DNA of 64,000 nt from Syntrophaceae bacterium UBA4810 (GCA_002402545.1 DHGA01000061.1:1239-65238), one strand, 5' to 3'. Positions 2,626-35,803 are shown, counted from the first letter of the stretch. Numbers and translations are program-made. The notes: a model not told the origin generated them from the sequence alone.

Positions 2626-3954
2626 ATGAAACCAATTCAAAAATCGATCATCAACGATTTTCGACATGGTATTTTCCTTACTCTTCTGGCTCTCTTCGCG
2701 ATCTACTTCTTCTGGCCCCAACTGGAAAGAATTGAATACGGCCTGTATGACCTGGGTTCGCGCCTGCGGGTAAAGCCCGTGGCCTCGCCCGTCAGCGTTA
2801 TCGCGATTGACGAAAGAAGCATTGCCGATTTCGGCCCGTGGCCCTGGCCCCGATCTTACATAGCGTTTATGATTGATATGCTGGACGTTTATGAGGCAAA
2901 AGTTATCGGCCTTGATATTATCTATTCCGGCAAGGACCTTAATCACGGCCTCAAAGAAGTCGTTAATATTATCAAGACCATTGAAAACAATCCCCAGTAT
3001 TCCAAAAAAAATATGAGTACCGTTGTTTTATTGGCGGCGCTCAAAGACGCGGAAGAACGCCTGGATAACGACGCGATTTTAGCCAATTCCGTTGCCGCAA
3101 GCAAAAAAGTGGTTATGCCCCTGCTGTTTCATCTGAAAAAATCGAAGGAAGCTCCTTATAATTTCTATACCGATTACATGACCGCCAATTCACTTTTCCC
3201 CTACCCCTCGGATAAAAGCGTTGTTGCCCGCGATATTACTGTCCCCATAGATCCTTTCGCGAGCGACGCGCTGCGGCTGGGGCATATAAATATTTTCGCG
3301 GATAACGACGGCGCGGTGCGAAGTGAAAACTTTTTTATCAATTATAATGGCAGAATATATCCTTCTCTCGCTCTTCAGCTTGTGTTGGCTTACTTTGATC
3401 TTGATTTAACGGATTTATCTTTCGGAAAGAATCTAACTTTCGCGCACAAATCCATTCCTCTTTTAAACCAGAACAGGATGCTTATTTCTTTTAAAAACGA
3501 GATCCCTTATTATTCGTTTGTAGATGTTATTAATAAAAAAATCCCCGCTGACGCGTTTCGGAATAAAGTTGTCATCATCGCTCCCAGCACGGCAGGCTTG
3601 GGGGAACTGCGTGAAACCGCGACGGCTTATAAAGTTCCCTCGGTAAAAATTATCGCCAACATTATCGATAATATTTTAAGCGACGATTATATAATCCGCC
3701 CGGAATGGGCATTGGCGCTGGAATTGATGATGATTTTTTTATTCGGGCTTTTTATTACGCTTATCATACCGCGCCTCGGAGCATTGATCGGCACCATCAT
3801 AACTCTGGCCGTTTTGGCTATGTGGATTGGCGTGAGCTTGTATCTTTTTGTTAATTACAGTTACTGGATCAAAGCAGTGTATCCCGCTTTCGTTCTTTTG
3901 ATGGGGCACATTATCATCGTGTCCAAAAGATATGAAGTAGCTCCAAAAACGTGA
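2626..3954 (+). CDS. CHASE2 sensor-domain membrane protein lacking any output domain
   Basis: N-terminal TM, VIAIDERSIADFGPWPWPR...VIGLDIIYS CHASE2 signature, and C-terminal TM bundle. The protein stops right after the TMs. Confidence 0.7.
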   Translation: MKPIQKSIINDFRHGIFLTLLALFAIYFFWPQLERIEYGLYDLGSRLRVKPVASPVSVIAIDERSIADFGPWPWPRSYIAFMIDMLDVYEAKVIGLDIIYSGKDLNHGLKEVVNIIKTIENNPQYSKKNMSTVVLLAALKDAEERLDNDAILANSVAASKKVVMPLLFHLKKSKEAPYNFYTDYMTANSLFPYPSDKSVVARDITVPIDPFASDALRLGHINIFADNDGAVRSENFFINYNGRIYPSLALQLVLAYFDLDLTDLSFGKNLTFAHKSIPLLNQNRMLISFKNEIPYYSFVDVINKKIPADAFRNKVVIIAPSTAGLGELRETATAYKVPSVKIIANIIDNILSDDYIIRPEWALALELMMIFLFGLFITLIIPRLGALIGTIITLAVLAMWIGVSLYLFVNYSYWIKAVYPAFVLLMGHIIIVSKRYEVAPKT

Positions 3955-4094: not shown

Positions 4095-4895
4095 GTGAAA
4101 AATGACCGTGCCATAGGCGTTTTCGATTCCGGAGTCGGCGGCCTGACCGTTGTGCGATCCCTCATGGAGCGCCTGCCGTCAGAAAATATCATTTATTTCG
4201 GTGATACCGCGCGCGTACCTTACGGCATAAAATCAGTCGATACGATCAATCGCTACGCCTCCCAAATCACTGAATTTCTTTTAAAAAGAGATGTTAAGCT
4301 GCTGATTGTCGCCTGCAATACGATGGCAGCTGTCGCCTATCAGACAATCAAGGATTTATCCGACGTTCCGGTTTTAGAAGTCATCGAGGCCAGCGCCCAT
4401 AACGCTGTGCGCCAATCGCGCGCGAAGGTTATCGGCGTTATCGGAACGCCGGCTACTATCAACTCGAACGCCTACGCGCGCGCGATCCGTCATTGTGACA
4501 AGACGATTAAAATTTATTCTCAGGCCTGCCCGCTTTTTGTGCCCCTGGTGGAAGAAGGTTTGTTTGAACATGAGGCGACAAATCTTATCGCGCGGGAATA
4601 TTTAAAACCGCTTATGGCCGAAAAAATTGACACGCTTGTGCTGGGATGCACTCACTATCCGTTATTAAAACCGTTGCTTCAGGATATTGCCGGCCCCGAA
4701 GTAACTCTTATCGATTCGGCGCAGGCAATGGCGGATATCGCCGCGGATCTGATCGCGAAACAAAAAATTGCCAATGACGGCAATGATCATCCCGATTACC
4801 TGTTTTGCGTAAGTGACGTTCCGTACCGTTTTCAGGCTATCGGTGAAAAGTTTTTGGGTCGGAAATTTGACCGCGTGGAAGTGGTTAACTTATAA
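4095..4895 (+). CDS. murI: glutamate racemase
   Basis: GVFDSGVGGLTV, ACNT and GCTHYP motifs. GTG start. Confidence 0.9.
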   Translation: MKNDRAIGVFDSGVGGLTVVRSLMERLPSENIIYFGDTARVPYGIKSVDTINRYASQITEFLLKRDVKLLIVACNTMAAVAYQTIKDLSDVPVLEVIEASAHNAVRQSRAKVIGVIGTPATINSNAYARAIRHCDKTIKIYSQACPLFVPLVEEGLFEHEATNLIAREYLKPLMAEKIDTLVLGCTHYPLLKPLLQDIAGPEVTLIDSAQAMADIAADLIAKQKIANDGNDHPDYLFCVSDVPYRFQAIGEKFLGRKFDRVEVVNL

Positions 4896-9827: not shown

Positions 9828-10943
9828 ATGTTAAAAACGAGACTAACAGAATTATTGGGAATTAAGTACCCCATCATGCAGGCAGGCATGGGCCCATTTT
9901 CCAACAACAACCTTTGCGTGGCCGCGGCCAACGCCGGCTGCCTGGGACTGCTTTCCACCAGCGGTCTTTTCAACAAAGACGACCAGCCCTGGGTATACAA
10001 CGCCTTTTGTGACACCGGCGAAGCGAAACGTGACGACGATATGGCCACCGTGCTGGACACTGTTCTGAAACGCACGCATCGTCTGGTCAAAGACAAAGGC
10101 GGCGTTTTCGGCCCCAATGTGATGGTATCGGCAGAACTAAAAGACAAAGCCAACATCATGATCGAAACGGCCATCAAGGCGCGGGAAGAAAATCCCGACA
10201 TGAAAAAAACCCTCAAGGTAATTTATACATCTGCCGGTGATCCAATGGGCTGGGGAGAAAAAATTAAAGGCGCCGGCTTCATCTGGATTCATATCATCCC
10301 TTCCGTCAGAGCCGCATTGCGCTGCAAAAAGGCGGGTGTGGACGTGATTGTCGCTTCCGGCCATGAAGGCGGATTCCACACACATTGGGAACCGCTTCAT
10401 TCTATGGTTCTTTTCCCCGCCGTTGTCGAGGCAGTGTCCGACGCAAAAACGCTCGTAGTGGGCGGCGGCGGCGTATCCGACGGCAAAACTCTGGCCGCCA
10501 CTTTGGCTTTAGGTTGTGACGGAGCGCTGATGGGAACCCGCTTCCTCGCGACACAGGAAAGCGATTTTCCCCCGCTGTGGAAGCAATCCGTTGTAGAAGC
10601 GCAGGATCGCGGCACGCTCGTCGCCCGCGGTTATGTGGGCCCCGCCCGCTGGCTGAGAAATCCCCGCAGTGAAGAGCACGCGGTGAACACGCTGAAAAAA
10701 TCTCCCGGCGTGTTCCTCGGCACACCGGACAGCTATACAACCATGGAAGATATGTCTTTGATTGATTTTGAAAACGAATCTATCAAGGCCGTGTTTGAAG
10801 GAGACAAATCAAAAGCGATGATGGCCGCCGGCGAAGCCGCCCAGCGCATCAACGACATGCCCAAGGTTGAAGATTTGGTTAAAGCCATGGCCAAAGAGGC
10901 GGAAGACATTATCGTCAACATGCCCAAGAAATACGTTAAATAA
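9828..10943 (+). CDS. NAD(P)H-dependent flavin oxidoreductase (nitronate monooxygenase / FabK-like family)
   Basis: LLGIKYPIMQAGMG N-terminus and GG(G)VSDG...GTRF FMN-binding pattern. Confidence 0.8.
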   Translation: MLKTRLTELLGIKYPIMQAGMGPFSNNNLCVAAANAGCLGLLSTSGLFNKDDQPWVYNAFCDTGEAKRDDDMATVLDTVLKRTHRLVKDKGGVFGPNVMVSAELKDKANIMIETAIKAREENPDMKKTLKVIYTSAGDPMGWGEKIKGAGFIWIHIIPSVRAALRCKKAGVDVIVASGHEGGFHTHWEPLHSMVLFPAVVEAVSDAKTLVVGGGGVSDGKTLAATLALGCDGALMGTRFLATQESDFPPLWKQSVVEAQDRGTLVARGYVGPARWLRNPRSEEHAVNTLKKSPGVFLGTPDSYTTMEDMSLIDFENESIKAVFEGDKSKAMMAAGEAAQRINDMPKVEDLVKAMAKEAEDIIVNMPKKYVK

Positions 10944-10964
10944 AGATTTACACGCCAAACAAAA

Positions 10965-10991
10965 GCCGGAGGCGATTTCTGCGCCTCCGGC
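10965..10991 (+). terminator. GC-rich hairpin downstream of 9828-10943
   Basis: CCGGAGGCG-atttctg-CGCCTCCGG. No clean T-run follows. Confidence 0.4.
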
Positions 10992-11124
10992 AATTACAAT
11001 AAGGGGTGTTTTTATGCGTCACCTCGAATTTATTAAACCTGTAAACTGTTTCAAAAAGCAACTGATATATTTACCAGACATTACCCAGTTGTTATGATAA
11101 ATAAAATGAAGGAGGCTCAATGAA

Positions 11125-11664
11125 ATGGTAGAGCAACCAAAAAGAAGTTTAGGAAAAGCAATTGATTCAATTGTTGACGCACTAGAGACCTTGGATGATG
11201 ATTCAAAACTTATTGCGGTTAAAGCTGCATGTGCTCACCTGAATATCCCTTTGGGTAACGAAGCACAAACAGTTCTACCACCACGGACAGTAACGCCAAC
11301 TCAATCTGAACAGATAGCACCATCCTCAACTCAATCACCAGATAATACACAAATTATTGATATCAGGTCTCTCAAAGAGAGCAAAAACCCTAACAATGCT
11401 GTTGAGATGGCTTGTATTGTAGCATTTTACCTTGGAAACACTGCCCCAACCGAAGAAAGAAGGAATGAAATTTTTACCAAAGACATTGACCGCTATTTTA
11501 AGCAAGGAGGATTTCCTCTTCCTAAAGTGCCTGGCCAGGTATTACGTGATGCCAAGGCCGCTGGCTATTTGGATTCTGCCGGTCGAGGATCTTTTAAATT
11601 AAATCCTGTCGGTTATAATTTAGTTGCACATACTTTACCGCGAGCAAAAGGTAAAAAATCTTAG
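11125..11664 (+). CDS. hypothetical protein (AT-rich accessory DNA)
   Basis: GGAGG RBS and a 179-aa ORF. I recognised no family. Confidence 0.55.
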   Translation: MVEQPKRSLGKAIDSIVDALETLDDDSKLIAVKAACAHLNIPLGNEAQTVLPPRTVTPTQSEQIAPSSTQSPDNTQIIDIRSLKESKNPNNAVEMACIVAFYLGNTAPTEERRNEIFTKDIDRYFKQGGFPLPKVPGQVLRDAKAAGYLDSAGRGSFKLNPVGYNLVAHTLPRAKGKKS

Positions 11665-11713
11665 CTTTGTTCTTGGCTGGTATCAAATCTTTGAAGGATT
11701 TAGGTCTTATTAA

Positions 11714-12517
11714 ATGATTGAACATATCAGAACTTTACAAGAAGCTCTTAATTCTCTGCAAATTGGCCTTCGTAAAATAAGATCAAAACAGATTCATCAT
11801 AAAAAGATCATTGCTGCTTCAAAAAAGATAGTTGATATTTATTTTAGAGAACTTCGTGAATTTCTTTTGAGTGCCTGCAACAACACGTCTGTTATTACAG
11901 ATCTGGATGCTAATATGCAAGACCTTCTTGAAGCAACACATAAGAAGACTAGTATCGGTATTTATAAGAGCAGGGTATCAAAAATAAAAAATCTACTATT
12001 GGAAACAGAAAAACTTATCCTTTTATCAGCAAGTAATTCTAATAACAGACATCAACTTACCCCTGCTGACAGAAGGGTAATAGAGACATTAAAGAAAATT
12101 CTCCCCTCGGCTGCGTTATCGTATGAGCAAGCATTAATAGATATGGAATCGTCGCACCGCTTATCCTGGAGGGGACCAGCGACAGATTTACGTGAGGCAT
12201 TAAGAGAGTGTTTAGATCATTTAGCCCCTGATAAGGAAGTTGAAGATGCCCCCGGATTTAAACGCGAACCAAATGCAAATGGCCCCACTATGAAACAAAA
12301 AACTACATATATACTGAGGAGTAGGCAATTATCTAAGGAATCAATTAAATCAGCACAAGATTCGGTTGCACTGATTGATGAAATGCTTGGATCATTTGTC
12401 CGATCAATTTATACACGCGCAAGTATATCAACACATACACCAACGGATAAAAAAGAAGTGGGGCGTATTTGTGATTTGGTAAGATTTGTTCTATGTGAAC
12501 TATTATCAATTTCATAA
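11714..12517 (+). CDS. hypothetical protein with C-terminal Rx5H (HEPN-like?) motif
   Basis: 267-aa ORF with RASISTH near the C-terminus. Family not recognised. Confidence 0.5.
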   Translation: MIEHIRTLQEALNSLQIGLRKIRSKQIHHKKIIAASKKIVDIYFRELREFLLSACNNTSVITDLDANMQDLLEATHKKTSIGIYKSRVSKIKNLLLETEKLILLSASNSNNRHQLTPADRRVIETLKKILPSAALSYEQALIDMESSHRLSWRGPATDLREALRECLDHLAPDKEVEDAPGFKREPNANGPTMKQKTTYILRSRQLSKESIKSAQDSVALIDEMLGSFVRSIYTRASISTHTPTDKKEVGRICDLVRFVLCELLSIS

Positions 12518-12520
12518 GAA

Positions 12521-12587
12521 TCCTAACCAGTCGCTAAAGCCGATCGCAGCGCCTGCGGCGCCGCTCCGGCTTAGCTTTTCGTTGGGC
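12521..12587 (+). repeat. attC-like recombination site 1
   Basis: TCCTAAC...CGCTAAAGCCGATCG...GCCGCTCCGGCTTAGCTTTTC-GTTGGGC. Imperfect palindrome with unpaired bases. It begins 4 nt after the upstream stop and ends 8-20 nt before the next start. Confidence 0.65.
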
Positions 12588-12606
12588 AACAAAATTGAAT
12601 ACAATC

Positions 12607-13686
12607 ATGAAGCGAGAAAACAGGCTTTTCATAGATGAATGTGGTTATACGGGAGAAGACCTCTTTAATGAGGATCAACCCGTTTTTGTCCTAGCCAGTT
12701 TCTGGTTAGCTGAAGAATATTGCGTCGATTTAAAACACAAATATTTCTCAAAAGTAAAAGCCAAAGAGCTGAAACATTCACGTTTATCAAGATATCCCGC
12801 CCAACAAAATATGGTTATTGATTTTCTTCGTGATATAGCAAAGGAATCAGACTCAGTCAAATTTGCCATTGCCCATAAACATTATGTTCTTATAACTAAA
12901 ATTGTTGACCTTCTTATCGAACCAATGGCGTATGAAGATGGTTTAGATTTCTATCAAGATGGTCTCAATATAGCTTTTTCAAATATGCTATACATCCAAA
13001 CCAAAAGACTCGCAGGAGATGATTTTTTTAAATGTATGCTCAAAAGTTTTCAGCAAATGATGAGAGAAAGGACATATCCCGCGTATGAAGCTTTTTTTAG
13101 GCCCATTTGCGAAAAAAAATTTCATAAAAAGCTTGATGAATTTTTTATTTTTCTTAAGGCACATCACGTACGATATGGCCCCAATTTTTTACGTACAATT
13201 CCGAAAGATGCGCTTGAAATTGCCTTTGCTGAAGCATTCAATTTGGTAGCTGAGTGGTCGAAATCTATTCAAGGCAATTTTTCACTTATACATGACAAAT
13301 CTTCAAATATGGCCAAAAATAAAAAGGCCTGGGATAAAGTGCTTCACCCTGCGGTTCCACCCAAAGTTGTAGGCTACGACAGGAGAAAAATGTATTTTCC
13401 CATTCGGACGGAAAAATCAGACTTCGAGAATTCATCTGATTTTGCAGGATTGCAACTTGTGGACATATTAGCAGGAGCAATGGCCAGATGTATGAAATGG
13501 AATATTCAGGGGGAAGAAGATCATGACGACTATGCGAAAGAATTGTCATCCTTTTTGCCAGAGTCATTTGGAGGACATATGCTTTGGCCTAGTACAAATG
13601 TAACTCCCAAAGATCTTGGGACAACTGGTCCAAAGGCTGAAGATGCAATACAGCATTTCATTGACTTGATCAAAGATGTTATCTAA
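12607..13686 (+). CDS. DUF3800 domain protein
   Basis: N-terminal FIDECGYTG (DE motif) and C-terminal LQLVDILAGA motif typical of DUF3800. The ATG at 12607 is preferred over the TTG at 12595. Confidence 0.65.
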   Translation: MKRENRLFIDECGYTGEDLFNEDQPVFVLASFWLAEEYCVDLKHKYFSKVKAKELKHSRLSRYPAQQNMVIDFLRDIAKESDSVKFAIAHKHYVLITKIVDLLIEPMAYEDGLDFYQDGLNIAFSNMLYIQTKRLAGDDFFKCMLKSFQQMMRERTYPAYEAFFRPICEKKFHKKLDEFFIFLKAHHVRYGPNFLRTIPKDALEIAFAEAFNLVAEWSKSIQGNFSLIHDKSSNMAKNKKAWDKVLHPAVPPKVVGYDRRKMYFPIRTEKSDFENSSDFAGLQLVDILAGAMARCMKWNIQGEEDHDDYAKELSSFLPESFGGHMLWPSTNVTPKDLGTTGPKAEDAIQHFIDLIKDVI

Positions 13687-13708
13687 CAATAATGAACTTA
13701 AGGGCAAT

Positions 13709-13772
13709 GCCCAACACCCGCTAAAGCCGATCGTGGCCACAAGGGCCGCTCCGGCTGAGCTTTTCGTTGGGC
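13709..13772 (+). repeat. attC-like recombination site 2
   Basis: GCCCAAC (RYYYAAC) ...CGCTAAAGCCGATCG...GCCGCTCCGGCTGAGCTTTTC-GTTGGGC (GTTRRRY). The ends are exact reverse complements. It shares an obviously related internal sequence with site 1. Confidence 0.7.
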
Positions 13773-13783
13773 AGGAGAAGGAC

Positions 13784-14386
13784 ATGAAGAAGCGATGCGA
13801 GTGGTGCGGCGGTGATCTCCTGTATATTGCCTACCACGATGAAGAGTGGGGTGTCCCTGTTCATGATGACCGCCTGTTGTTTGAGTTCCTTGTGCTGGAA
13901 GGAGCACAGGCGGGACTAAGCTGGCTGACCATCCTGAGGAAACGGGAGAACTATCGGAAGGCGTTTGACGCCTTCGAGTGTGAGCGTGTTGCCAAATACA
14001 CAGGGCATGACGTAACGCGCTTGCTCTCGGACTCCGGAATCGTACGGAATCGGCTCAAGATCGAATCGACCATCAAGAACGCTCGCACCGTTCTTGAAAT
14101 CCAGAATGAATGGGGCTCTCTGGATGCGTACTTATGGCGCTATGTTGATGGCATCCCAAAGCAGAACATGTGGAAATCTATGGCGGAGTTGCCCGCGAAG
14201 ACCGAAACGTCCGACATGATGAGCAAGGATTTGAAGAAGCGCGGATTCAACTTCGTGGGCTCAACAATCTGCTACGCATTCATGCAGGCGGTCGGCATGG
14301 TGAACGACCACACCACAGACTGCTTTCGCTACAGGGAGATCAAGAAGCTGAGATCGTCCAACCAGCCATCGGAAGCGACTCGCTAA
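13784..14386 (+). CDS. tag: DNA-3-methyladenine glycosylase I
   Basis: CEWC...YHDEEWGVPVHDD...LEGAQAGLSW signature. GGAG RBS, with the start 12 nt after the attC R' box. Confidence 0.9.
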   Translation: MKKRCEWCGGDLLYIAYHDEEWGVPVHDDRLLFEFLVLEGAQAGLSWLTILRKRENYRKAFDAFECERVAKYTGHDVTRLLSDSGIVRNRLKIESTIKNARTVLEIQNEWGSLDAYLWRYVDGIPKQNMWKSMAELPAKTETSDMMSKDLKKRGFNFVGSTICYAFMQAVGMVNDHTTDCFRYREIKKLRSSNQPSEATR

Positions 14387-14417
14387 AGCTCGCTCCTAAA
14401 TGGCTAACGTTAAGGGA
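14355..14417 (+). repeat. attC-like recombination site 3 (more divergent, overlaps tag 3' end)
   Basis: GTCCAAC...AGCCAT.GGAAGCGA-loop(CGCTAAAGC)-TCGCTCC...ATGGCT-AAC-GTTAAGG. Arms pair with bulges. The next ORF starts 11 nt downstream. Confidence 0.5.
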
Positions 14418-14428
14418 AAAAACATATT

Positions 14429-14782
14429 ATGCAGTACACCACTGTTCCTTTGTATGTCTCTACGCCGACAATGAAGAGCCTGGGCAATGAATATACTATC
14501 TTCGAGGACAAAATAGATTTGAGGTGCAGGTATTTGTTTTTCAATAAGATAATTACCGTGAAAAAGGAGGATATCGTTTCTATCGACGTATTCAGGCCAC
14601 CGGTAATCAGAACTTCGTTTAAAGCGCTAAAGCTTGATCTCGCGGATTTTTATGAGCATGTCGGCATAACCAGAAAGGGCGGCGTTTTCAGTCAATTGCG
14701 TTTTACCCCGGAAGACCCGCAGAAATTTGTTGCCGCGGCCAAAGAGGTTTTTGATATTGCTAATAAATCAAAGGAGATTTAA
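14429..14782 (+). CDS. hypothetical protein
   Basis: 117-aa ORF immediately after attC-like site 3. Confidence 0.5.
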   Translation: MQYTTVPLYVSTPTMKSLGNEYTIFEDKIDLRCRYLFFNKIITVKKEDIVSIDVFRPPVIRTSFKALKLDLADFYEHVGITRKGGVFSQLRFTPEDPQKFVAAAKEVFDIANKSKEI

Positions 14783-14784
14783 AC

Positions 14785-15120
14785 ATGCCCGAAAAGTTAT
14801 CAGAGATAAAAGATTTGACCAATGTATTGAAGCTAAAAGATATCGTCGCCTATCAGGAGCATTCCGTGGTGAGCCGGGAATTAATCCGCAAGCCAACCGG
14901 AACGCTGAGCGTTTTTGCCTTTGACCAGGGCGAAGGCTTAAGCGAACATACCGCGCCATTTGACGCAGTGGTCTGCATCCTGGAGGGCGAAGCGCAAATC
15001 AGCATTGATAAAAAGCCCCATACGATTAAAGAAGGCGAGATGCTGATTATGCCCGCCAACAAGCCACACGCGCTGCAGGCTGTCACCAAATTCAAAATGT
15101 TATTGGTGATGATTAAATAA
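14785..15120 (+). CDS. cupin domain protein
   Basis: GEMLIMPANKPHAL and H..P....V.EG cupin motifs. 111 aa. Confidence 0.7.
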   Translation: MPEKLSEIKDLTNVLKLKDIVAYQEHSVVSRELIRKPTGTLSVFAFDQGEGLSEHTAPFDAVVCILEGEAQISIDKKPHTIKEGEMLIMPANKPHALQAVTKFKMLLVMIK

Positions 15121-15209
15121 AGATTAGGATTATTATATAAATACACTTTTTTAACATTCCAAATGTTTGGCAGCAAAACAAATGACTTGATTTTCAAAAA
15201 GATTACTTC

Positions 15210-15238
15210 TTGACATTAGTAAACATATTGTTTATCAT
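15210..15238 (+). promoter_or_regulatory. sigma70-type promoter of higBA (TTGACA-17-TATCAT)
   Basis: The -10 box ends 6 nt before the higB ATG, which implies a leaderless or near-leaderless mRNA. Confidence 0.5.
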
Positions 15239-15244
15239 GCCTGC

Positions 15245-15526
15245 ATGATCAAGTCTTTTCGTTGCCGTGAAACCGAGAAGATATTTCGGCGTGAGTTTTC
15301 ACATAAGTTTCCTCGAGACATCCAGCAGCGCGCCTTCATAAAACTCAACGCCCTTGATGCGGCAATAAAAATTGAAGATTTGCGTTTGCCACCTTCTAAT
15401 CGGCTGGAGACATTAAAAGGAAAGCGACAGGGACAATGGAGCATCAGAATCAATGACCAATGGCGTCTTTGCTTCACATGGAAAGACGGCCATGCAGAAA
15501 ACGTTGAAATCGTTGATTATCATTAA
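15245..15526 (+). CDS. higB: HigB-type (RelE/ParE superfamily) toxin
   Basis: 93 aa. The pattern ...LKGKRQGQWSIRINDQWRLCF.W......VEIVDYH is typical of plasmid-maintenance killer HigB. Confidence 0.8.
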   Translation: MIKSFRCRETEKIFRREFSHKFPRDIQQRAFIKLNALDAAIKIEDLRLPPSNRLETLKGKRQGQWSIRINDQWRLCFTWKDGHAENVEIVDYH

Positions 15527-15537
15527 GGAGATTTAAA

Positions 15538-15840
15538 ATGGCAAAAAAACCAATAAAGCCAGTTCATCCGGGAGTTTATTTAAAAGAGTTGCTCAATGAG
15601 CTCGAGCTTTCACAGTATCGCCTCGCAAAAGAGTTGAATGTTCCGGCGATGCGTATTAATTATGTAATAAACGGCAAACGCCCCGTGAATGCATCTCTAG
15701 CTTTGAGATTGGGAAGGTATTTCAGCCAAGACCCGCGTTACTGGATCAATCTGCAGAGCCGCTACGATATGGATATAGCCGAAGACGCGCTGGAAAATAA
15801 AATCGTCCGCGAGGTTCATCCCCTGAGAATGGCAGGATAG
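15538..15840 (+). CDS. higA: HigA-type XRE-HTH antitoxin
   Basis: PVHPGVYLKELL...LSQYRLAKELNVPAMRINYVINGKR pattern. Toxin-first gene order. Confidence 0.8.
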   Translation: MAKKPIKPVHPGVYLKELLNELELSQYRLAKELNVPAMRINYVINGKRPVNASLALRLGRYFSQDPRYWINLQSRYDMDIAEDALENKIVREVHPLRMAG

Positions 15841-15875
15841 CATAAATAATTTAGATGCTGAAATTTATTGATTGT

Positions 15876-15910
15876 GAGGCGGAGGCCTTTTGGCCGCCGC
15901 CTCTTTTTTT
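15876..15910 (+). terminator. intrinsic terminator after higA
   Basis: GAGGCGGAGGCC-tttt-GGCCGCCGCCTC followed by T7. Confidence 0.7.
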
Positions 15911-15916
15911 AATAAC

Positions 15917-16540
15917 CTAAATCCACTTAAGAATTCCCGCAAAAACAATCAGCATCAGGGCATTGACGCCAAAGAACGTGCCAATAACTATCTTCTGCGT
16001 TTTGGGCTTCCAATCGTAGGAATACATGGAGACGACAAAGAAGGGAATGTACACGGTGATAAACACGGGGATCGAGCCCCACCACGGATATACCCAGACG
16101 AAAGCGGGCGTTTTGGCCAGAAATATCTCAAAGATGGAGAAAAAGGCCGCGGCGCCCAGCGCGATAAAGAGACGGTTGTTGATGCCCAGTATTTTCTTTT
16201 TCGGTTTGGGATCGAGCAGCTTGCTGTAGACTAACCCTGCGGCGGCAAACATGATGCTGAGTTCCGCGCACACGCCTACCAGCAGCAAAAAACCCGTGCC
16301 GGTGGGAACAGTCCAGAGCGCGTGTCCGCTGAAATGCTGAATTAAAGCGTTGATAATTTCATAAAACCAGTGAACCATATACAAAGACAGGCCCGCGGCG
16401 ATGCCTTTGTAATTCTTTCGCGCGTACTCATCGAAGTAAATGTAGAAGAGAAACATCAAAAGCGGAATGATATACCACTGGAAATTCTCGCCGTTTCTGA
16501 GGATCGCCAGCGCCTGTGTTGTTGCTTCGGGATTGTTCAT
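15917..16540 (-). CDS. hypothetical integral membrane protein
   Basis: 207 aa with about 6 TM segments. Confidence 0.55.
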   Translation of the reverse strand: MNNPEATTQALAILRNGENFQWYIIPLLMFLFYIYFDEYARKNYKGIAAGLSLYMVHWFYEIINALIQHFSGHALWTVPTGTGFLLLVGVCAELSIMFAAAGLVYSKLLDPKPKKKILGINNRLFIALGAAAFFSIFEIFLAKTPAFVWVYPWWGSIPVFITVYIPFFVVSMYSYDWKPKTQKIVIGTFFGVNALMLIVFAGILKWI

Positions 16541-16778
16541 AATTGTGCCCTCCCTTTTCTGGTTTATTTCCGCATAATGTACCGATCCGCAAAGGCGGCG
16601 TCAATCGGAATTTATATTCTGAAATTATTCCACTTTTTTATAAATTCTCCGGCTTCATTGTTTTGTGTTCTTTTTTTTTCTTAATGAAGGTATAATCCAA
16701 AAACCTGCCAAGCGGGTATATTAATCGTTGCACAGGCGCATAGCGACTCGCCTACGCCGCAAAGGGGATAGATTGCCA

Positions 16779-17483
16779 ATGAGAACGCTCATCAATCCTT
16801 TTGGAATCATTGCGCTGGGGTTGACTTCAATATTTATCGTCGTCCAGGGATGGTCACTTCCGGAATTCTGCTGGAGCATCTGGCTGGCCGGACTTGTTTA
16901 CGCATGGGGCTGTATCCTGACAGCGCTTCTGCATATAGTTCTGACTGCCCGGTCGCAAAAAGCTTTCTACGAGCAAAAATGGCCATTTCTTCAGCGTCTT
17001 TCTCCGATGCCTTTCCTTATGTGCGTAACCGTTGCCGCCATATGTGCGGGATTTTTAGGTTTTCGCATATATACTTTTTTATTCGGTTTTTATGGCTTGT
17101 TTCTCTCTGTTTTTGCGGAAATGGAGCCTTTTTCTCTTTTCGGAAGAAATGGATTTATTAACTCAGATTTTTTCACCCCTGTGGCATACCTCTTAAATCG
17201 CTTCTGGCCCATGGCAGCAGGTGTAGTTATTGCGAACTGGGACGATTTCTTGCGTCATAACCCGTGGAAGCGTATCGTGTTACCCTTTCAAAAAGAAATA
17301 GTACGTCTGCATATCATGATTCTTGCCTTGCCTTTTTTATCGCTTATCGCGTGGTTTATCTTCGGAGAGGCATACCAGCTAATAACCATTTTACTGCTCT
17401 TGGGACTTTTCTATCTTTTGCCCAAGAAGGCATTGATAAATCAATCGGCGAGGAAAAATGAAGTCGACAATCGCTCCCAATAG
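16779..17483 (+). CDS. hypothetical integral membrane protein
   Basis: Multi-TM ORF. ATG at 16779 with an AAGGGGA RBS. Confidence 0.55.
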   Translation: MRTLINPFGIIALGLTSIFIVVQGWSLPEFCWSIWLAGLVYAWGCILTALLHIVLTARSQKAFYEQKWPFLQRLSPMPFLMCVTVAAICAGFLGFRIYTFLFGFYGLFLSVFAEMEPFSLFGRNGFINSDFFTPVAYLLNRFWPMAAGVVIANWDDFLRHNPWKRIVLPFQKEIVRLHIMILALPFLSLIAWFIFGEAYQLITILLLLGLFYLLPKKALINQSARKNEVDNRSQ

Positions 17484-17616: not shown

Positions 17617-17774
17617 AATCTTTCATTGACACACAAAGCCGTCTGTCTTAATATTACAACAGTGTAAAACACTTTTTTATTTCCGGCGCATAGGCAAAAC
17701 CCATCTATGGATAGTCCCACAGGCGAAATCAAAGGAGTGGAATACCGCGAGGAATTTGTTGCGGTTGATGATGC
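17617..17774 (+). repeat. left copy of a direct repeat (promoter box plus first 23 codons of the alpha/beta-hydrolase gene)
   Basis: 17617-17651 matches 21726-21760 (35 bp, 2 mismatches) and 17706-17774 matches 21806-21874 (69 bp, 2 mismatches). Contains TTGACA(17626)-17-TAATAT. Confidence 0.85.
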
Positions 17775-21725: not shown

Positions 21726-21874
21726 AATCTTTTATTGACACACAAAGCCGACTGTCTTAAATTCGCCTATTAGAAAGCCATGTCGTATCAGAAGTTAGAG
21801 GCAGTTATGGATAGTCCCTCAGGCGAAATCAAAGGAGTGGAATACCGCGAGGAATTTGTTGCGGTTGATGACGC
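21726..21874 (+). repeat. right copy of the direct repeat (native promoter and 5' end of the hydrolase gene)
   Basis: See the left copy. Contains TTGACA(21735)-17-TAAATT. Confidence 0.85.
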
Positions 21875-24357: not shown

Positions 24358-24546
24358 GTTATTTTCCTCCTGGCTGATAAGTTATCATATTTTTATGCCG
24401 CAAGCATAGGTTAATGCTTCGCGATATGTCAATGAATTTATATCCTTATTGCTGAATACCTGATTTAGCAGCTAATATTCAGATTTATTTACGATAAGCA
24501 GCGCAATGAGGAGATATTGAACTAAAATATTGGTGGCAATCTTTCA

Positions 24547-24575
24547 TTGACTCTCAAAACCGTGTGTCTTAAAAT
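24547..24575 (+). promoter_or_regulatory. promoter (TTGACT-17-TAAAAT), third copy of the conserved 37-bp promoter box
   Basis: TCTTTCATTGACTCTCAAAACCGTGTGTCTTAAAATC compared with 17619 TCTTTCATTGACACACAAAGCCGTCTGTCTTAATATT. Confidence 0.5.
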
Positions 24576-29648: not shown

Positions 29649-29712
29649 AGGTTGGTGACAGCCTGATATTTTTTTAACGGCCTTATTATTAATTCCCCAT
29701 CTAAGGATTTTG

Positions 29713-30906
29713 ATGCGGCAGTCCAACTCAAATATAAAAATTTTATCTCTGTTTTCTCTTTTATATTCAGGCGGCAATTTTAAAAGCAACGCGTCGGCTC
29801 TGTCCGTCATTGATTGGCCGGAAATGACCACTTTTATTATGGAAAAAGGTTTGGCTGGGCATTTCTACAGCATTCTCTATCAAAATCCAACCGCCGCCGC
29901 ACTCATTCCTGCAGATACAATGGAAAGATTGAAAACCGCCGCTCGACGCGTCGCCGCTCACAATGTTTTTTACGAAACCCAATGCGCGGCAATACTCAAA
30001 GATTTGTCCGCAGCGGGAATAGAAAGCATTTTGCTTAAAGGCTTTTCCTATATGCGGGATATTTATGGCGACACTTCTTCCCGCAGCATGAGCGATATTG
30101 ATCTGCTTGTTCGCCCGGCCGACCGGATTAGAGCGCACGAATACCTGATAGATAACGGATTTTCTCTTTGCGTAATCCCTTCTTTCCGGGGCAGCCGGGA
30201 GGATTTCCTGCGCCTGACCGATATTATCGGCGAAACGCATTACATGAAACAAACCGGCGCGCTCACCGCGAGCGTCGACCTGCACTGGAAAATGCGCGCG
30301 GAATTTCCCATGAATAATTACATGGATTTGGATAAATTTCCCTGGTGGAAAAACGCCACGACTGTAGACATCGGCGATGCCCAGGCAAGAAGACTTGTGC
30401 CGGAGATGCAGTTCATTCATCTGGCGCTGCATTTCGCCATTCGTCATCACTATTGGGGGTTGAGATGGTTTGTGGAATTATTTCTTTTTCTGAAAACGTT
30501 CGGAGAAAAGCTGGATTGGGATTTCGTTTATCAAACAACTTCATCAAGTGACTGCCGCAAACTGCTGGGAGTCTGCCTGCGCCTTGTTAAAGATTATTTA
30601 GGCGATGCGTGCCCCGCTTCTGCAGAATGGCAAAAATTTCTGCCTGTCCGTTCTCTGTTACCCGGTGAATACAGCTTTTATAAAAGCTACCTTGCGCGGG
30701 ATAAAAAATCACGGCTGGCCGAATATCTTTGCATGCCGCTCAGCCCCGCGACGATTACCGGCCGGCTGAAGATGATTTATTATTTCCTCTTTGACGCGCA
30801 GGGAGTCGTTTTCTGGCAGGGAGCAGAAACCAGAGTGCCAAAAATGTTGCATCCTTTCTATGTTTTGTATATTGTTGCCCGGCAGTTACTGCGCCGTAGA
30901 AACTGA
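29713..30906 (+). CDS. nucleotidyltransferase family protein (NTP_transf_5-like)
   Basis: GFSYMRDIYGD...SMSDIDLLV NTase motif. The size and context (next to PqqD and an HPrK-like kinase) fit the family seen in lasso and other RiPP loci. Confidence 0.65.
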   Translation: MRQSNSNIKILSLFSLLYSGGNFKSNASALSVIDWPEMTTFIMEKGLAGHFYSILYQNPTAAALIPADTMERLKTAARRVAAHNVFYETQCAAILKDLSAAGIESILLKGFSYMRDIYGDTSSRSMSDIDLLVRPADRIRAHEYLIDNGFSLCVIPSFRGSREDFLRLTDIIGETHYMKQTGALTASVDLHWKMRAEFPMNNYMDLDKFPWWKNATTVDIGDAQARRLVPEMQFIHLALHFAIRHHYWGLRWFVELFLFLKTFGEKLDWDFVYQTTSSSDCRKLLGVCLRLVKDYLGDACPASAEWQKFLPVRSLLPGEYSFYKSYLARDKKSRLAEYLCMPLSPATITGRLKMIYYFLFDAQGVVFWQGAETRVPKMLHPFYVLYIVARQLLRRRN

Positions 30907-30944
30907 TGAAACGCCAATTTGCATAAAATAACGGAGAAATGCAT

Positions 30945-31211
30945 ATGAAAAAAATCCCGAAGAAGAACCCGGATATTATCTGGAAAAATGTAAAAGGAGA
31001 GACCGTGCTTCTCAATCCCCAAAGCGGAAAGTATTACGGCCTCAACAAGGTCGGCTGCGCCTTCTGGGAAAAGGTAGACGGAAAAAAAGCAATGCCGGAG
31101 ATCGCCGACTTATTGCTCAAAGAATTCACCGTGGAAAGAGAAAGGCTTCTGGGGGACTTGGAAGATTTACTTAAAACGCTTACCGAAAACAATATTATAA
31201 CAATAGAATAA
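30945..31211 (+). CDS. PqqD-family RiPP recognition element (lasso B1-like peptide chaperone)
   Basis: About 88 aa with the ...GETVLLNPQSGKYYGLNKVGCAFWEKVDGK...EIADLL..EF.V pattern typical of PqqD. Confidence 0.8.
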   Translation: MKKIPKKNPDIIWKNVKGETVLLNPQSGKYYGLNKVGCAFWEKVDGKKAMPEIADLLLKEFTVERERLLGDLEDLLKTLTENNIITIE

Positions 31212-31221
31212 AGAGGCCGGA

Positions 31222-32214
31222 TTGCAGAAATATTCTTATATTTTTGATGCTTTTGGAAGTTCGTTTGGAGTATCGGGCAACTGGCCTGACTGCCTCAAAG
31301 ATATCAGCGCCTGGTATGCCTTGCCGCAAAGCAAAATATCGGGCAAGCCGGATTTATCTTTGCAAATCTCCGGCGCCAAAATAGAAGAAATTGACCGGCG
31401 GCTTCCCCTGCCCTCTGAGAATCATAAACTCAAAAAAGGCGTCATGCTGGCCAATGAAAATTTTGATTATACATCTTACGCGGACAACGAAAGGCAATGG
31501 ATTGATTACGCCCGTGTCGGGCGAATTATGATTGATTACGTCAATGGTTCTGCGATAGCGCTTATGTGCGGCAGCGCCATGCTCCCTACCTACCAGAAAA
31601 TTCTTTTTCCCGACTATGCTTTGGACAAACTTCTTACCTCCCGGGGAATTTTTTCGATGCATGCCTCCTGCGCTGTGGTTAACGGCAAAGGCATAGCCTT
31701 TACAGGCAATTCCGGCGCGGGTAAGTCCACGGCGGCTTTTATGCTGATGCAGAAAGGAATGCAGATACTTACCGATGAAAAATTGTATGTTTTTAAAAAA
31801 GATTGCTACCGGGCGGGGGCGGTTTCGGATATTATTAAGGTAAACGATGATTCCATGTCGAGATTTTTTGCCGGGCGGGATTCTTACAGCGAATATGACG
31901 TTATCGCCGGGGAACATTATTTAAAAATCAGCGCCGCGACAAAATCCGCCGGGCAAAATCAGGTGCCGCTCAAAGCGCTGTGCCTGCTGGAGCAGACAGG
32001 CTTTCCCCAAACGCAGATAACCTCCGTCAATCCCACCAAGCTTGTCGGCGGCCTCTTCCCCGTTACCATAACAGGGACAAGCCGCAGATATAAAGCAGCC
32101 AAGTTTGATTTTATTATGGAAATGCTGGAGAACATCGAGTGCCGTCTGGTTAAATTCGGCACTAATATGGATAGTTTTACGGAAAAAATTAAGGAACTGG
32201 CAGATACATTATAG
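31222..32214 (+). CDS. HPr-kinase-related (HprK-like) P-loop kinase
   Basis: GIAFTGNSGAGKST P-loop in HPrK C-domain context. TTG start after AGAGG. Confidence 0.65.
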   Translation: MQKYSYIFDAFGSSFGVSGNWPDCLKDISAWYALPQSKISGKPDLSLQISGAKIEEIDRRLPLPSENHKLKKGVMLANENFDYTSYADNERQWIDYARVGRIMIDYVNGSAIALMCGSAMLPTYQKILFPDYALDKLLTSRGIFSMHASCAVVNGKGIAFTGNSGAGKSTAAFMLMQKGMQILTDEKLYVFKKDCYRAGAVSDIIKVNDDSMSRFFAGRDSYSEYDVIAGEHYLKISAATKSAGQNQVPLKALCLLEQTGFPQTQITSVNPTKLVGGLFPVTITGTSRRYKAAKFDFIMEMLENIECRLVKFGTNMDSFTEKIKELADTL

Positions 32215-32226
32215 TTATCTGATAAT

Positions 32227-32286
32227 AAAAAAGGCGTTCAATGACCGGATTTAACCCGATTCACTGAGCACCCGATAAAAACAAAA
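32227..32286 (-). terminator. conserved hairpin terminator module, copy 1 (after precursor A1)
   Basis: GGCGTTCAATGA...TCACTGAGCACC flanked by A/T runs. The loop CCGGATTTAACCC is conserved with copies 2 and 3. Confidence 0.55.
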
Positions 32287-32295
32287 TCTGATATT

Positions 32296-32382
32296 TTAAG
32301 GGTCTGGTTGTTTGCTCGAAGTGGTTATATCCGAAAGATCTTCATAAACGACAAGTTCCGGTTTTTCGTAGTCTTGCTTCAT
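32296..32382 (-). CDS. RiPP precursor peptide A1: MKQDYEKPELVVYEDLSDITTSSKQPDP
   Basis: My own codon-by-codon translation. AAGGGGGA RBS. The leader is shared with six paralogs. Confidence 0.8.
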   Translation of the reverse strand: MKQDYEKPELVVYEDLSDITTSSKQPDP

Positions 32383-32642
32383 AGTTGTTCCCCCTTTGAT
32401 TGAATATTAAATTGTTTTTATGCATACGACAAAAATCCATCACAAGCAAGTTTGTTTTTTTTTGCAATGATTCTAGTGAAACAATTCTTCAGAAGCAATA
32501 TATTATAAGCTCAGGTATTTGTGCCTTTTTATGACTTAATAATACTGCTCCATTGGCCAATTTCCCTTGACATATAAGACAGTCTTATCCTACGATTTTG
32601 CAACCAAATATAATATATTATCACAATTAGAGGTGGCTTTGC

Positions 32643-34190
32643 ATGAAGGAATTGGACCTTGCCTGGTACATGATACGACTGCACACGCGGCTGCGGCGTT
32701 TTGATCATAAGCGAAATAGTCAAGATAAGATAAATATTTTTCACCATGCCAGGAGGGTCACGAGTAAGTTGAGTTCCGTCCTGATTCGCTTTTCTGTAGC
32801 CGAGGCAAAAACCCCGTGGTTTACTGATGACGAAGCTAAAGCGATTCATCAAGAGAGAGAAAAACTATTAGAGAAGCTTTCCGGTCGGACAAACCTCAGT
32901 GCCAACGGGACTAAACTCCATCTCGGTAAGCTGTCTCGGGGTTGCACCATTTGCATGGATGGATACTGGGGTTGTAACTATATCAACGGGCGGTGCCACA
33001 GAAACTGCTTTTACTGCATGCGAGATCATTCAATGCAAACGGAACCAAATTCCAAAAGTGATGGTTTTGATTTTGGCACTTCCGAAGAACACATAGAATT
33101 CCTCAAAACTTTTCAGATCAGGGGTGTCGGATTTTCCGGGGGAGAACCCTTGTTGGTTCTCGATCGGCTCTTGGAGCACATTGTTGCGATACGTAAGGAA
33201 CTCGGTTCCACAATTTATCTCTGGATGTATACCAATGGCGATTTGGTAAACCGCGAGACGCTTAGTGCGCTCAGAGATGCCGGGCTAAACGAGATCCGTT
33301 TCGATTTGAGCGCCCGAGGTTATGACTTGTCACCTCTTGTGCTCGCCAAGGAATATATCCCCACCGTAGCTGTTGAAATACCGGCCATCCCTGAGGATTT
33401 TCTCTTGGTGAAAAAGTTGCTGGTCGATATGCAGGCTGTTGGCGTCAATCACCTCAATCTTCATCAATTAATGGCTGGGCAGCGTAATTGGAAGGCTTTG
33501 TGCCGTCGGCACTATCACTTTTCGTTTCAAAGTACGCCTGCTGTTCATGAGTCAGAGCTTTGCGCCTTGCGTTTGATTCTGTACGCTTGTGAGCAAAAAC
33601 TGAACCTGCCAATCAATTACTGTTCCGTAGCCTACAAATTTCGTTTTCAGGGACGAGCATTCAGAATGCGGCGCGCCTTGGTTCTTCGGGAAGGGTTTCA
33701 GGAAATAACGGAAGCGGGCTATATCCGATCACTGTGTATATCTGATTCCGCCGATAAGATTGAAGCGCTAGCTAGGCGGTTGAAGGGTGATCATGTGGAA
33801 CCCATATTGTGGAAAGAGGAATGCGATCATGGTGAAATCTCCTTGCACAGCAACCTGATGTCCTATGTTGATTGGTCTTCTGCGACGTTGGCTATCAAAT
33901 ACTATCAGGCTGGTGTTGCGCTCAAGAATAAATCCGCTCGATTCGAACCTGGAAATCTGAAAAGGGATAGGCGTACCGTCAAGACGGTTACCGGCTTGGG
34001 TTGTTCAGCCTTCGATTGTTGGCATAGGCTTTATGTTCAGAAGGAAGCCGCAACAGATGTTTTCAGCCCCACCCATCTTAAACACCTCGGTGTTTCGGAA
34101 GAGAAAAATCGGTTTAAGAATATAATCGGTCAACTGCTTTCTGTGGCCACATACGAACAATTGGAGGCTGGCTTGCCTGATGTGACTTGA
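32643..34190 (+). CDS. radical SAM protein (515 aa, large C-terminal extension)
   Basis: GRCHRNCFYC CX3CX2C motif preceded by an extra Cys cluster (CTICMDGYWGC). GFSGGEPLL glycine-rich SAM motif. Confidence 0.75.
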   Translation: MKELDLAWYMIRLHTRLRRFDHKRNSQDKINIFHHARRVTSKLSSVLIRFSVAEAKTPWFTDDEAKAIHQEREKLLEKLSGRTNLSANGTKLHLGKLSRGCTICMDGYWGCNYINGRCHRNCFYCMRDHSMQTEPNSKSDGFDFGTSEEHIEFLKTFQIRGVGFSGGEPLLVLDRLLEHIVAIRKELGSTIYLWMYTNGDLVNRETLSALRDAGLNEIRFDLSARGYDLSPLVLAKEYIPTVAVEIPAIPEDFLLVKKLLVDMQAVGVNHLNLHQLMAGQRNWKALCRRHYHFSFQSTPAVHESELCALRLILYACEQKLNLPINYCSVAYKFRFQGRAFRMRRALVLREGFQEITEAGYIRSLCISDSADKIEALARRLKGDHVEPILWKEECDHGEISLHSNLMSYVDWSSATLAIKYYQAGVALKNKSARFEPGNLKRDRRTVKTVTGLGCSAFDCWHRLYVQKEAATDVFSPTHLKHLGVSEEKNRFKNIIGQLLSVATYEQLEAGLPDVT

Positions 34191-34320
34191 TTAATTAACA
34201 AGCTGCCGACACTGGTTACCCAAAATAGTTGTGCCGTCCAGGGACTTTAATAGCGGATAAGATTGTTTTTATTATTGAGATGCTGGCAAATGCTGTCAGA
34301 AACATTATAAATGCTTGATA

Positions 34321-34376
34321 AACAAAGGCGCTCAATACCGGGATTTAACCCTATTCATTGATCGCCAGATAAAAAA
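34321..34376 (-). terminator. conserved hairpin terminator module, copy 2 (after precursor A2)
   Basis: GGCGCTCAAT-loop(ACCGGGATTTAACCC..)-ATTGATCGCC, with a T-run on the minus strand. Confidence 0.6.
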
Positions 34377-34387
34377 GATACTTACTG

Positions 34388-34477
34388 TTATACAGGACTG
34401 GTACTCAAGCCACCTGTCGTTACATCCGAAAGGTCTTCGTAAACAATCAGTGCGGGTGTTTCATAATCTTGTTTCAA
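34388..34477 (-). CDS. RiPP precursor peptide A2 (TTG start): MKQDYETPALIVYEDLSDVTTGGLSTSPV
   Basis: In-frame TAA two codons upstream of the TTG, and GGAGGG 6 nt upstream. Confidence 0.7.
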   Translation of the reverse strand: MKQDYETPALIVYEDLSDVTTGGLSTSPV

Positions 34478-35779: not shown

Positions 35780-35803
35780 ACAAAAAAAGATTAGTGCTCG
35801 AAA

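Follow-up and report, generated by a model that had tools for sequence, protein, structure and literature searches.

It is well established that integron cassettes serve as reservoirs for defence and toxin-antitoxin (TA) systems (10.64898/2026.03.17.712381 and references therein). DUF3800 proteins are described as having an RNase H-like fold and an association with defence and mobile elements (PMC10910872, PMC13594972), with links that include Cas12a2/a3 loci and retrons (PMC10910872, PMC13594972, PMC7736814), and a characterised Argonaute-associated nuclease, EcbAgaN, is also available for comparison (PMC13535254). Here we analysed a stretch of 64,000 nucleotides from Syntrophaceae bacterium UBA4810 (GCA_002402545.1, DHGA01000061.1:1239-65238; the whole of this stretch is called the window, and positions are counted from its first letter), in which an AT-rich block at 11000-13690 carries three plus-strand genes: gene A (11125-11664, 179 aa), gene B (11714-12517, 267 aa) and gene C (12607-13686, 359 aa, or 363 aa from a TTG at 12595), the last of which encodes a DUF3800 protein. 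We found that A and B are an obligate and mobile pair occupying an integron cassette and that C fills a second cassette beside it. We favour, with a probability of roughly 0.55, the reading that A-B is a mobile TA-like or abortive-infection (Abi) module and that C is an independent DUF3800 nuclease cassette. As a system the A-B pair is absent from the papers searched and from PADLOC.

In 55 of the 57 loci that were fetched, profile searches located a homologue of A immediately ahead of B on the same strand, the two exceptions being one degraded B and one B cut by a contig edge. The hosts fall into more than 10 phyla and include Bacteroidota, Planctomycetota, Alpha-, Beta- and Gammaproteobacteria, Acidobacteriota, Gemmatimonadota, Nitrospirota, Actinomycetes, Omnitrophota, Verrucomicrobiota, Chloroflexota, Desulfobacterales and one lineage of the candidate phyla radiation (CPR). 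Between the stop codon of A and the start codon of B the median gap is 4 nt, the genes often overlap, and further annotated contexts show the same A-B order. An initial annotation, made from the sequence alone, had suggested checking whether 11125-11664 and 11714-12517 co-occur in other genomes, and they do, across all of these phyla. The genes are adjacent, co-oriented, tightly coupled and co-occurring (55/57 loci, median gap 4 nt), which is the organisation of TA-type pairs. In one Acidobacteriota metagenome-assembled genome (MAG; locus L021, CAVWIZ010000003.1, 5101-6807), a single reading frame runs from A into B, with about 30 linker residues between them. The DUF3800 gene, on the other hand, adjoins A-B only in this genome and in no other of the loci examined.

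Gene B had been described initially as matching no family, a statement that has to be revised, as its product matches Pfam PF18165 (pP_pnuc_1) with a score of 45.5 bits, where the cut-off is 26.3, and also matches the PADLOC model Aga_Nuclease (3.6e-9), to whose Argonaute-associated protein class its domain is distantly related. Both models are matched by all 71 relatives tested. The match takes in just the middle of each model (Pfam positions 13-97 of 133; PADLOC positions 30-94 of 267, with E values of about 1e-9 to 1e-11). The AlphaFold model of B (predicted local distance difference test score, pLDDT, of 87.8) is entirely alpha-helical and divides into an N-terminal domain (residues 1-108) and a C-terminal domain (residues 117-263), the PF18165 domain spanning about residues 117-263. 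An exhaustive search with the C-terminal domain recovered 583 representatives at 50% identity, nearly all of them 260-290 aa long and sharing the architecture of B. Across 147 diverse representatives at 50% identity, the positions conserved in 95-100% of sequences are Q139, D143, S151, R153, G154, R160, E161, R164, D173, P191, Q195, K196, R204, R230, Y233 and H241, with H241 present in 100%, R230 in 99% and Y233 in 98%. The PF18165 C-terminal domain, rich in invariant Arg, Glu, Asp, Gln, Lys, Tyr and His residues, is probably the effector of the pair.

The names of these models raise the possibility that B is an accessory nuclease of an Argonaute encoded elsewhere in the genome, as the Pfam family is titled ‘predicted pPIWI-associating nuclease’ and Aga_Nuclease is matched by every one of the 71 family members. 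We consider this very improbable. No Piwi or Argonaute gene was present in 11 Pfam-annotated contexts, across about 50 loci no family of large open reading frames (ORFs) turns up repeatedly beside the pair, and the constant partner of B is A. The PADLOC match is both partial and modest (positions 30-94 of 267), EcbAgaN belongs to a different family, and a 1.5-kb mobile cassette is unlikely to need a distant partner. We also considered whether PF18165 might correspond to the helical, regulatory N-terminal domain of EcbAgaN, in which case B would have in common with it no more than a non-catalytic domain for Argonaute binding, taking the EcbAgaN sequence from the supplement of PMC10620215. This was rejected, as EcbAgaN matches DpnII-MboI and Aga_Helical-REase and neither PF18165 nor Aga_Nuclease.

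A second reading of B comes from the sequence RASISTH, which the initial annotation had placed correctly, as it had the ORFs themselves, and which occupies residues 235-241 of the 267-aa protein. It had been noted as fitting the HEPN RNase motif Rx4-6H, which would make B a HEPN-superfamily RNase toxin acting through R235-ASIST-H241. Both R235 and H241 are invariant in close relatives (at least 43% identity), the Rx5H motif lies between the last two helices of the B model in a HEPN-like position, and weak Foldseek matches include LsoA (E 2.4) and the Csm complex chain 9g9h_C (probability 0.82), which are helical and related to nucleic acids. Agap, a proven HEPN RNase, is moreover associated with Argonaute (PMC11162769). 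Against this, R235 is only 83% conserved among the 147 diverse representatives, 23 of which (16%) have Q, K, S, N, L, V or Y at this position, while the true invariants are R230, Y233 and H241, with a spacing of 10 residues between R230 and H241 that lies outside Rx4-6H. A structure search had also been recommended, and with B it yielded neither a significant nor a HEPN match by Foldseek in the PDB and the viral models; a profile search of PDB sequences was equally empty, and no Pfam family of the HEPN clan recurs among the 71 B-family members. Because R235 is not conserved family-wide, the sequence data do not support the HEPN assignment, the Rx5H motif is a feature of the close B subfamily and not of the whole family, and we judge a HEPN toxin improbable, with some small chance of a very divergent HEPN given that the motif loop is poorly modelled.

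Two relatives with unusual architectures bear on the domain organisation of B. In P0340, a singleton, an AbiTii (PF18864) domain is fused to a module matching B residues 76-267, and this gene has no A partner, its neighbours being transposases and a UvrD helicase. Because A is absent where AbiTii replaces the N-terminal domain of B, this protein suggests that the part of B on which A acts is its own N-terminal domain, and that the effector role belongs to the C-terminal module. The N-terminal domain of B was itself considered as a diverged AbiTii, an idea that found no support, since homology to P0340 begins at B residue 76 and no family member matches AbiTii. Separately, P0259 (480 aa) bears a PF18165 module at residues 330-479 after an unrelated and unannotated N-terminal region of 330 residues, so that P0259 shows a further arrangement of domains or else is a chimeric gene call. 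P0259 was dismissed as a second A-B fusion, as the A profile finds no match within it.

The product of gene A, the obligate upstream partner of B, matched no family in any library searched, in line with the earlier description of a 179-aa protein of no recognised family. Its model (pLDDT 84) consists of a helical hairpin at residues 9-38, a disordered linker at about 47-78 and a domain at 80-168 with the topology H-H-H-H-E-E-H and a pLDDT above 90. In the structure search recommended for this protein, Foldseek paired it with the winged helices of IclR, MarR, FNR, PadR and Rok at probabilities of up to 0.97, but with E values of 0.057 or higher, so that winged-helix matches were obtained and their E values were weak. 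A winged-helix fold for the C-terminal domain is well supported. PF14338 (Mrr_N) is weakly matched by 31 of 75 A-family members (best E 7.5e-4), though not by A of the window itself, and the suggestion that the winged helix is specifically Mrr_N-like rests on these matches. Residues V162, G163, N165 and L166, which form a motif flanking the winged helix, are invariant across phyla. Upstream of A lie a GGAGG ribosome-binding site (11111-11115) and, 27 nt before the gene, a plus-strand promoter-like site at 11070-11098 (TTTACC, 17 nt, TATGAT, with the TG of an extended -10), which is a match to consensus only, there being 11 such sites in the region against 7.9±2.9 in shuffles. The upstream regions of relatives share no homology except the ribosome-binding site.

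The composition of the three genes sets them apart from their surroundings. The block at 11000-13690 has a GC content of 0.379 against 0.475 for the whole window, which is the minimum among all 2.7-kb windows of the 64 kb, and the 1-kb bins between 11 and 13 kb stand at 0.368 and 0.387 where bins elsewhere are at about 0.48. GC content at third codon positions (GC3) is 0.261 in gene A, 0.257 in gene B and 0.314 in gene C, compared with 0.561±0.044 in 26 reference genes of the window (z scores of -5.6 to -6.9), whereas the flanking genes, for nitronate monooxygenase (NMO) on the left and 3-methyladenine DNA glycosylase I (tag) on the right, have values of 0.62 and 0.70 and are not AT-rich. The foreign composition proposed initially, for which windowed GC and codon usage had been named as the check, is borne out on both measures (GC3 0.26-0.31 vs 0.56±0.04), and A, B and C come from a low-GC donor. 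The drop in GC, from 0.49 to 0.34, falls at a hairpin at the junction of the NMO gene and the AT-rich cargo (10965-10991, unstranded), which is present as described, with 10 pairs of which 9 are G-C; a T-tract accompanies it on the minus strand only, and the plus strand has no T-run after the hairpin.

The AT-rich block is organised by attC sites. Such sites are recognised by an R'' box (RYYYAAC), an R' box (GTTRRRY), inner L'' and L' boxes, an imperfect palindrome and an extrahelical base, and this layout was found on the plus strand at 12521-12587 and at 13709-13772. The first site, attC1, forms the 3' end of the A-B cassette, the A-B genes ending 3 nt before it, and has the boxes TCCTAAC (R''), GCTAAAGCCG (L''), CCGGCTTAGC (L') and GTTGGGC (R'), a variable central stem and a G|TT crossover at 12581|12582; its R'' box starts with T and not with the consensus R. 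The second, attC2, has the R'' box GCCCAAC, the R' box GTTGGGC and a crossover at 13766|13767. The L boxes of the two sites are almost the same and their central stems differ in sequence while both still pair, giving a common layout of R'' T/GCCYAAC, L'' GCTAAAGCCG, central stem, L' CCGGCTNAGC and R' GTTGGGC. Two copies of this repeat were observed where none was expected by chance, and the predicted folds of the two sites have energies of -30 to -36 kcal/mol.

Alignment of attC1 and attC2 with eight attC-like sites that lie beside A-B pairs of other phyla revealed a shared structure, the consensus of the 10 sites consisting of a 6-bp R stem, a spacer, a 9-bp L stem and a bulge at a fixed position. 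Compensatory changes on both sides occurred in 7 of 15 base pairs among these sites, although the scan had pre-selected R boxes and stable folds, leaving L-box covariation and the bulge as the independent evidence. Between the two G|TT points lies a DUF3800 cassette of exactly 1185 bp (12582-13766), with C as its sole gene. The interval 10.95-13.77 kb is thus made up of two integron cassettes set between the native NMO and tag genes. No empty site was found in public data, as every contig with the same NMO gene carries cargo.

Neither an integron integrase nor another tyrosine recombinase was found in the Pfam-annotated genes of 1714-22517, and the 10 integrase-sized ORFs examined at 22-46 kb did not include an integrase either. 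Because no tyrosine recombinase was found in the genes and ORFs examined, we assign the block, which has no integrase (IntI) near it, to the type known as CALIN (cluster of attC sites lacking integron-integrases) and not to complete integrons. The cassette array proposed in the initial annotation is upheld as to its integron context, which the attC sites establish, but two strong sites and one weak candidate do not make a long array. The weak candidate is a degenerate third attC overlapping the end of tag (14356-14415, unstranded), which has CGCTAAAGC in common with attC1 and attC2 and is followed 14 nt on by the next ORF; taken alone it is not significant, as a loose scan yields 0-5 matches per shuffled window. 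At 14429-15120, between tag and higBA, there is a 117-aa ORF with no family match, followed 2 nt on by a Cupin_2 gene. Were the third attC real, these two genes would make up a further two-gene cassette.

On the right the block is bounded by tag (13784-14386, plus strand; Pfam Adenine_glyco, 4.7e-83). The longest tag ORF begins at 13676, overlapping the end of the DUF3800 gene and crossing attC2, and Adenine_glyco begins only at residue 43 of this ORF. The true start of tag is likely to be the ATG at 13784, 11 nt past attC2 and with a GGAGAAGG ribosome-binding site, and public gene calls for tag (236 aa) probably over-extend the N-terminus. Further downstream, the HigBA pair mentioned in the initial annotation is indeed found, as higB-higA at 15245-15840 on the plus strand (HigB-like_toxin, 1.1e-20; HTH_3), with a promoter TTGACA, 17 nt, TATCAT at 15210-15238; we treat it as context only.

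The A-B pair is mobile in other genomes as well. In 40 of 48 loci it has a lower GC content than the sequence on either side, the average difference being 6 points. It forms an attC-bounded cassette in about 8 other loci, and attC sites lie directly after B in four loci (L012, L031, L032 and L053) and before A in two (L045 and L021). Ahead of the fusion gene of L021 there are three tandem attC-like sites (2359-2436, 3658-3730 and 4511-4585). In a Planctomycetota MAG (L062, DASRRH010000032.1, 4039-8245), four attC sites form an array that directly follows, on the downstream side, a 1209-aa type I HsdR with a Peptidase_S24 match, and within this array A-B is a complete cassette bracketed by attC on both sides, with several DUF1801 cassettes after it. 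A different arrangement was seen in the closest relatives (64% identity; L069), where a hairpin repeat, TTTATCCGCC-NNNN-GGCGGATTT, flanks the pair at 1210-1245 and 3010-3040 with no attC, the pair itself sitting between hisF-like and clpP genes.

Restriction-modification (R-M) loci are the other setting in which the pair recurs. Operons of the form hsdR-hsdS-[A-B]-hsdM occur in at least five loci from different phyla (L018, L022, L030, L036 and L044), the pair abuts EcoRV and a D12 methylase in L067, and an Mrr nuclease lies nearby in L065. Any one neighbour family occurs at no more than 6 of about 50 loci, and the 122 nearest ORFs belong to 113 Pfam families in which type I R-M is the only recurring theme. 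Defence or addiction cargo, as had been supposed at the outset, fits these contexts of type I R-M operons, EcoRV and Mrr neighbours and attC arrays.

PrrC and RloC sit at analogous positions in type I R-M loci. A-B could likewise be a latent effector that Hsd proteins silence and that fires when a phage anti-restriction factor disables Hsd, solitary copies then being inactive passengers. The hsdR-hsdS-[A-B]-hsdM arrangement, seen in at least five loci of different phyla, and its correspondence to the established positions of PrrC and RloC speak for this possibility. Yet just some 10% of loci have type I R-M next to the pair, solitary cassettes (as in L062) still carry it complete and conserved, and in the window the annotated surroundings of the pair contain no hsd genes. 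We regard a dependence on Hsd as distinctly improbable.

Several observations weigh against a TA-like or Abi role. Ordinary housekeeping neighbours surround about 80% of loci, leaving the defence-island signal to a minority, and no B homologue was found on PLSDB plasmids or INPHARED phages. The label of nuclease for B is a prediction that draws on the Pfam authors’ own prediction and on conserved polar residues only, the loop at 231-242 that holds H241 is modelled at a pLDDT below 50, and searches of B against the PDB, viral models and PDB-sequence profiles gave nothing significant (the best PDB match by Foldseek was a catenin, E 0.12). PF18165 and its names brought up no paper in a full-text literature search. 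On its left side the A-B cassette has no definable edge, there being no upstream attC in the window, where the sole GTTRRRY left of A is a GTTAAAT at 10935-10941 that overlaps the NMO stop codon. Finally, L021 is the sole A-B fusion and comes from a MAG, so that it could be an assembly or sequencing artefact.

Some of these same observations would be accommodated if the pair had no role in conflict at all, A being an ordinary winged-helix regulator of B, B serving a niche-adaptive, regulatory or structural function, and the links to R-M and integrons reflecting hotspots for accessory genes. The neighbours are mostly housekeeping genes, spread over 113 Pfam families among 122 ORFs, the fold of B has no significant match in Foldseek searches, the pair is not picked out as a system by any defence model, and integron cassettes encode many types of function. 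Coupling at gaps of 0-6 nt, occurrence in more than 10 phyla and patchy, low-GC horizontal spread are, however, typical of selfish or defence modules, and insertion of the pair into type I R-M operons is a repeated finding. There is an AbiTii fusion in one relative, and the invariance across phyla of the A winged helix and its flanking motif argues against recognition of a locus-specific operator. We therefore rate a role outside conflict as fairly unlikely.

Under the TA-like or Abi reading that we favour, A and B would be made together by translational coupling, and A would bind B by way of B’s N-terminal domain and hold it inactive. Through its winged helix, A would probably repress the operon or sense DNA. 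Loss or titration of A, for example by phage DNA or upon failure of a neighbouring restriction system, may act as the trigger, and the freed effector domain of B would then attack nucleic acid and growth would stop. The data show the foreign composition, the attC sites, the obligate and tightly coupled pairing, the mobility and the recurrent R-M or defence contexts, and from there we infer the interaction of A with B, the toxicity, the nuclease activity and the trigger. Toxicity and neutralisation by direct binding are hinted at only indirectly, by the single in-frame fusion of L021 and by the loss of A where AbiTii takes the place of the N-terminal domain of B.

A broader version of this proposal is more tentative, and we would give it rather less than even odds. 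In it, A-B is a widespread two-gene immunity or addiction system that needs no Argonaute, occurs in more than 10 phyla and numbers about 580 clusters (50% identity). A dedicated Mrr_N-like partner would control a helical effector that has so far been known by no more than the name of an Argonaute-associated predicted nuclease, and the system would spread both in integron cassettes and by insertion into type I R-M operons. The C-terminal domain of B would, in the same proposal, be a new nuclease fold with the active-site signature R-S-x-Y-x7-H plus R-E-x-x-R-E.

If A-B is a working TA or Abi system, it would be a compact (about 1.4 kb), widespread and experimentally tractable addition to the defence repertoire, and one that neither PADLOC nor Pfam recognises as a system, though it is one among many candidate two-gene conflict modules. 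In about 55 contexts examined PF18165 occurs with a winged-helix partner and never with an Argonaute, so the annotation of the family as an accessory of prokaryotic Argonautes (pAgo) could be wrong. The effector domain of B has no solved relative, and a new nuclease or effector fold might be defined from its structure or activity. The locus also offers a clean case of defence-type cassette cargo in a genome in which no integrase was found, and it fits the recent view of integrons as defence ‘biobanks’.

The assignment of the third protein to DUF3800, made initially from its DE and VDILAG motifs, stands. Gene C matches PF12686 at 43.4 bits against a cut-off of 21 (7e-11), and both motifs are present, as DECG at residue 10 and as QLVDILAG at residue 283 of the 359-aa form, the latter containing the QxxD motif as QLVD. 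It also matches phrog_12991 (6e-54), and homologues 24-26% identical to it are found in two P2-like phages between the tail-fibre assembly and sheath genes. We take this phage position to be the P2 Z/fun cargo locus. C is predicted to be a nuclease of RNase H fold that is independent of A-B. The flanking repeats were also considered as DUF3800-associated RNA motifs (PMC5737381) and rejected, as they gave no Rfam match and have the architecture of attC sites instead; no Rfam family matched 10000-17000, and for the DUF3800 motifs this held with E values allowed up to 1.

Elsewhere in the window, three other features were seen. On the minus strand at 32296-36473 (with neighbours over 29710-37506) there are seven ORFs of 27-31 aa with a common leader, M-K-x-[DE]-Y-E-x-P-x-L-[VI]-V-Y-E-D-L-S-[DE]-[IV]-T-T-G, and variable tails, these ORFs matching the 106-nt repeat family D1; their neighbours encode a radical-SAM-like protein of 515 aa (32643-34190), NTP_transf_5, HPr-kinase-like, formyltransferase and DUF362 proteins. 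This region looks like a cluster for a ribosomally synthesised and post-translationally modified peptide (RiPP) with several precursor peptides and a YxxPxL-type leader. A 38-nt element, AATCTTTCATTGACACACAAAGCCGNCTGTCTTAANAT, with TTGACA and TAATAT-like hexamers, lies upstream of separate operons at 17617-17654, 21726-21763 and 24538-24575, with a weaker copy at 36499-36527, and the 69-nt stretches that follow it at 17706 and 21806 are 97% identical; the element may serve one regulon as a common promoter or operator. The third feature is an ORF at 50652-51452 that consists largely of AAAAAG/GCN repeats (repeat families D2, D4, D15 and D17) and is rich in Lys and Ala, its product resembling a histone-H1-like or AlgP-like basic protein.

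Among described systems, A-B resembles type II TA and Abi pairs such as HigBA and HEPN-MNT, with which it shares two small, co-oriented and translationally coupled genes and an upstream protein with a DNA-binding fold and a disordered segment, and, like type II TA and PrrC-like effectors, it is mobile and patchy and occurs both in integron arrays and inside hsd operons. Unlike type II TA systems, however, neither A nor B belongs to a known toxin or antitoxin family, and B, at 267 aa and with an additional N-terminal domain of its own, is large for a type II toxin. B is a member of PF18165 and Aga_Nuclease in that it scores above the curated Pfam cut-off, but it departs from the family as named, as its constant partner here is a winged-helix protein and no Argonaute was near in the contexts examined. 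A likeness to AbiTii of the lactococcal AbiT system lies in P0340, which joins AbiTii to an effector module of the B type, although residues 1-75 of B are not detectably AbiTii-like.

Gene C differs from the TPR-DUF3800 accessories of Cas12a2/a3 in having neither a TPR domain nor a CRISPR locus, and from the genes of the DUF3800-I to -XI RNA motifs in that no such Rfam motif occurs in 10000-17000 and the structured repeats flanking C are attC sites. It also stands apart from other DUF3800 proteins as a single-gene integron cassette, and yet it is like them in its Pfam score, its DE and QxxD motifs, its mobile or defence-type context and its homologues in the cargo of P2-like phages. Compared with integrons, the window has no IntI and no attI that was found, only two strong attC sites and a first cassette with an undefined left edge, and, unlike integron platforms, the block sits between two native-looking housekeeping genes. 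In its R'', L'', L' and R' boxes, imperfect palindromes, fixed bulge and attC sites directly 3' of ORFs, it is nonetheless like the integron cassettes of CALIN elements. The near-identity of attC1 and attC2 recalls single chromosomal integrons, whose attC sites are near-identical, and the small foreign genes carried here as cargo are like those of integron cassettes with TA or phage-defence cargo.

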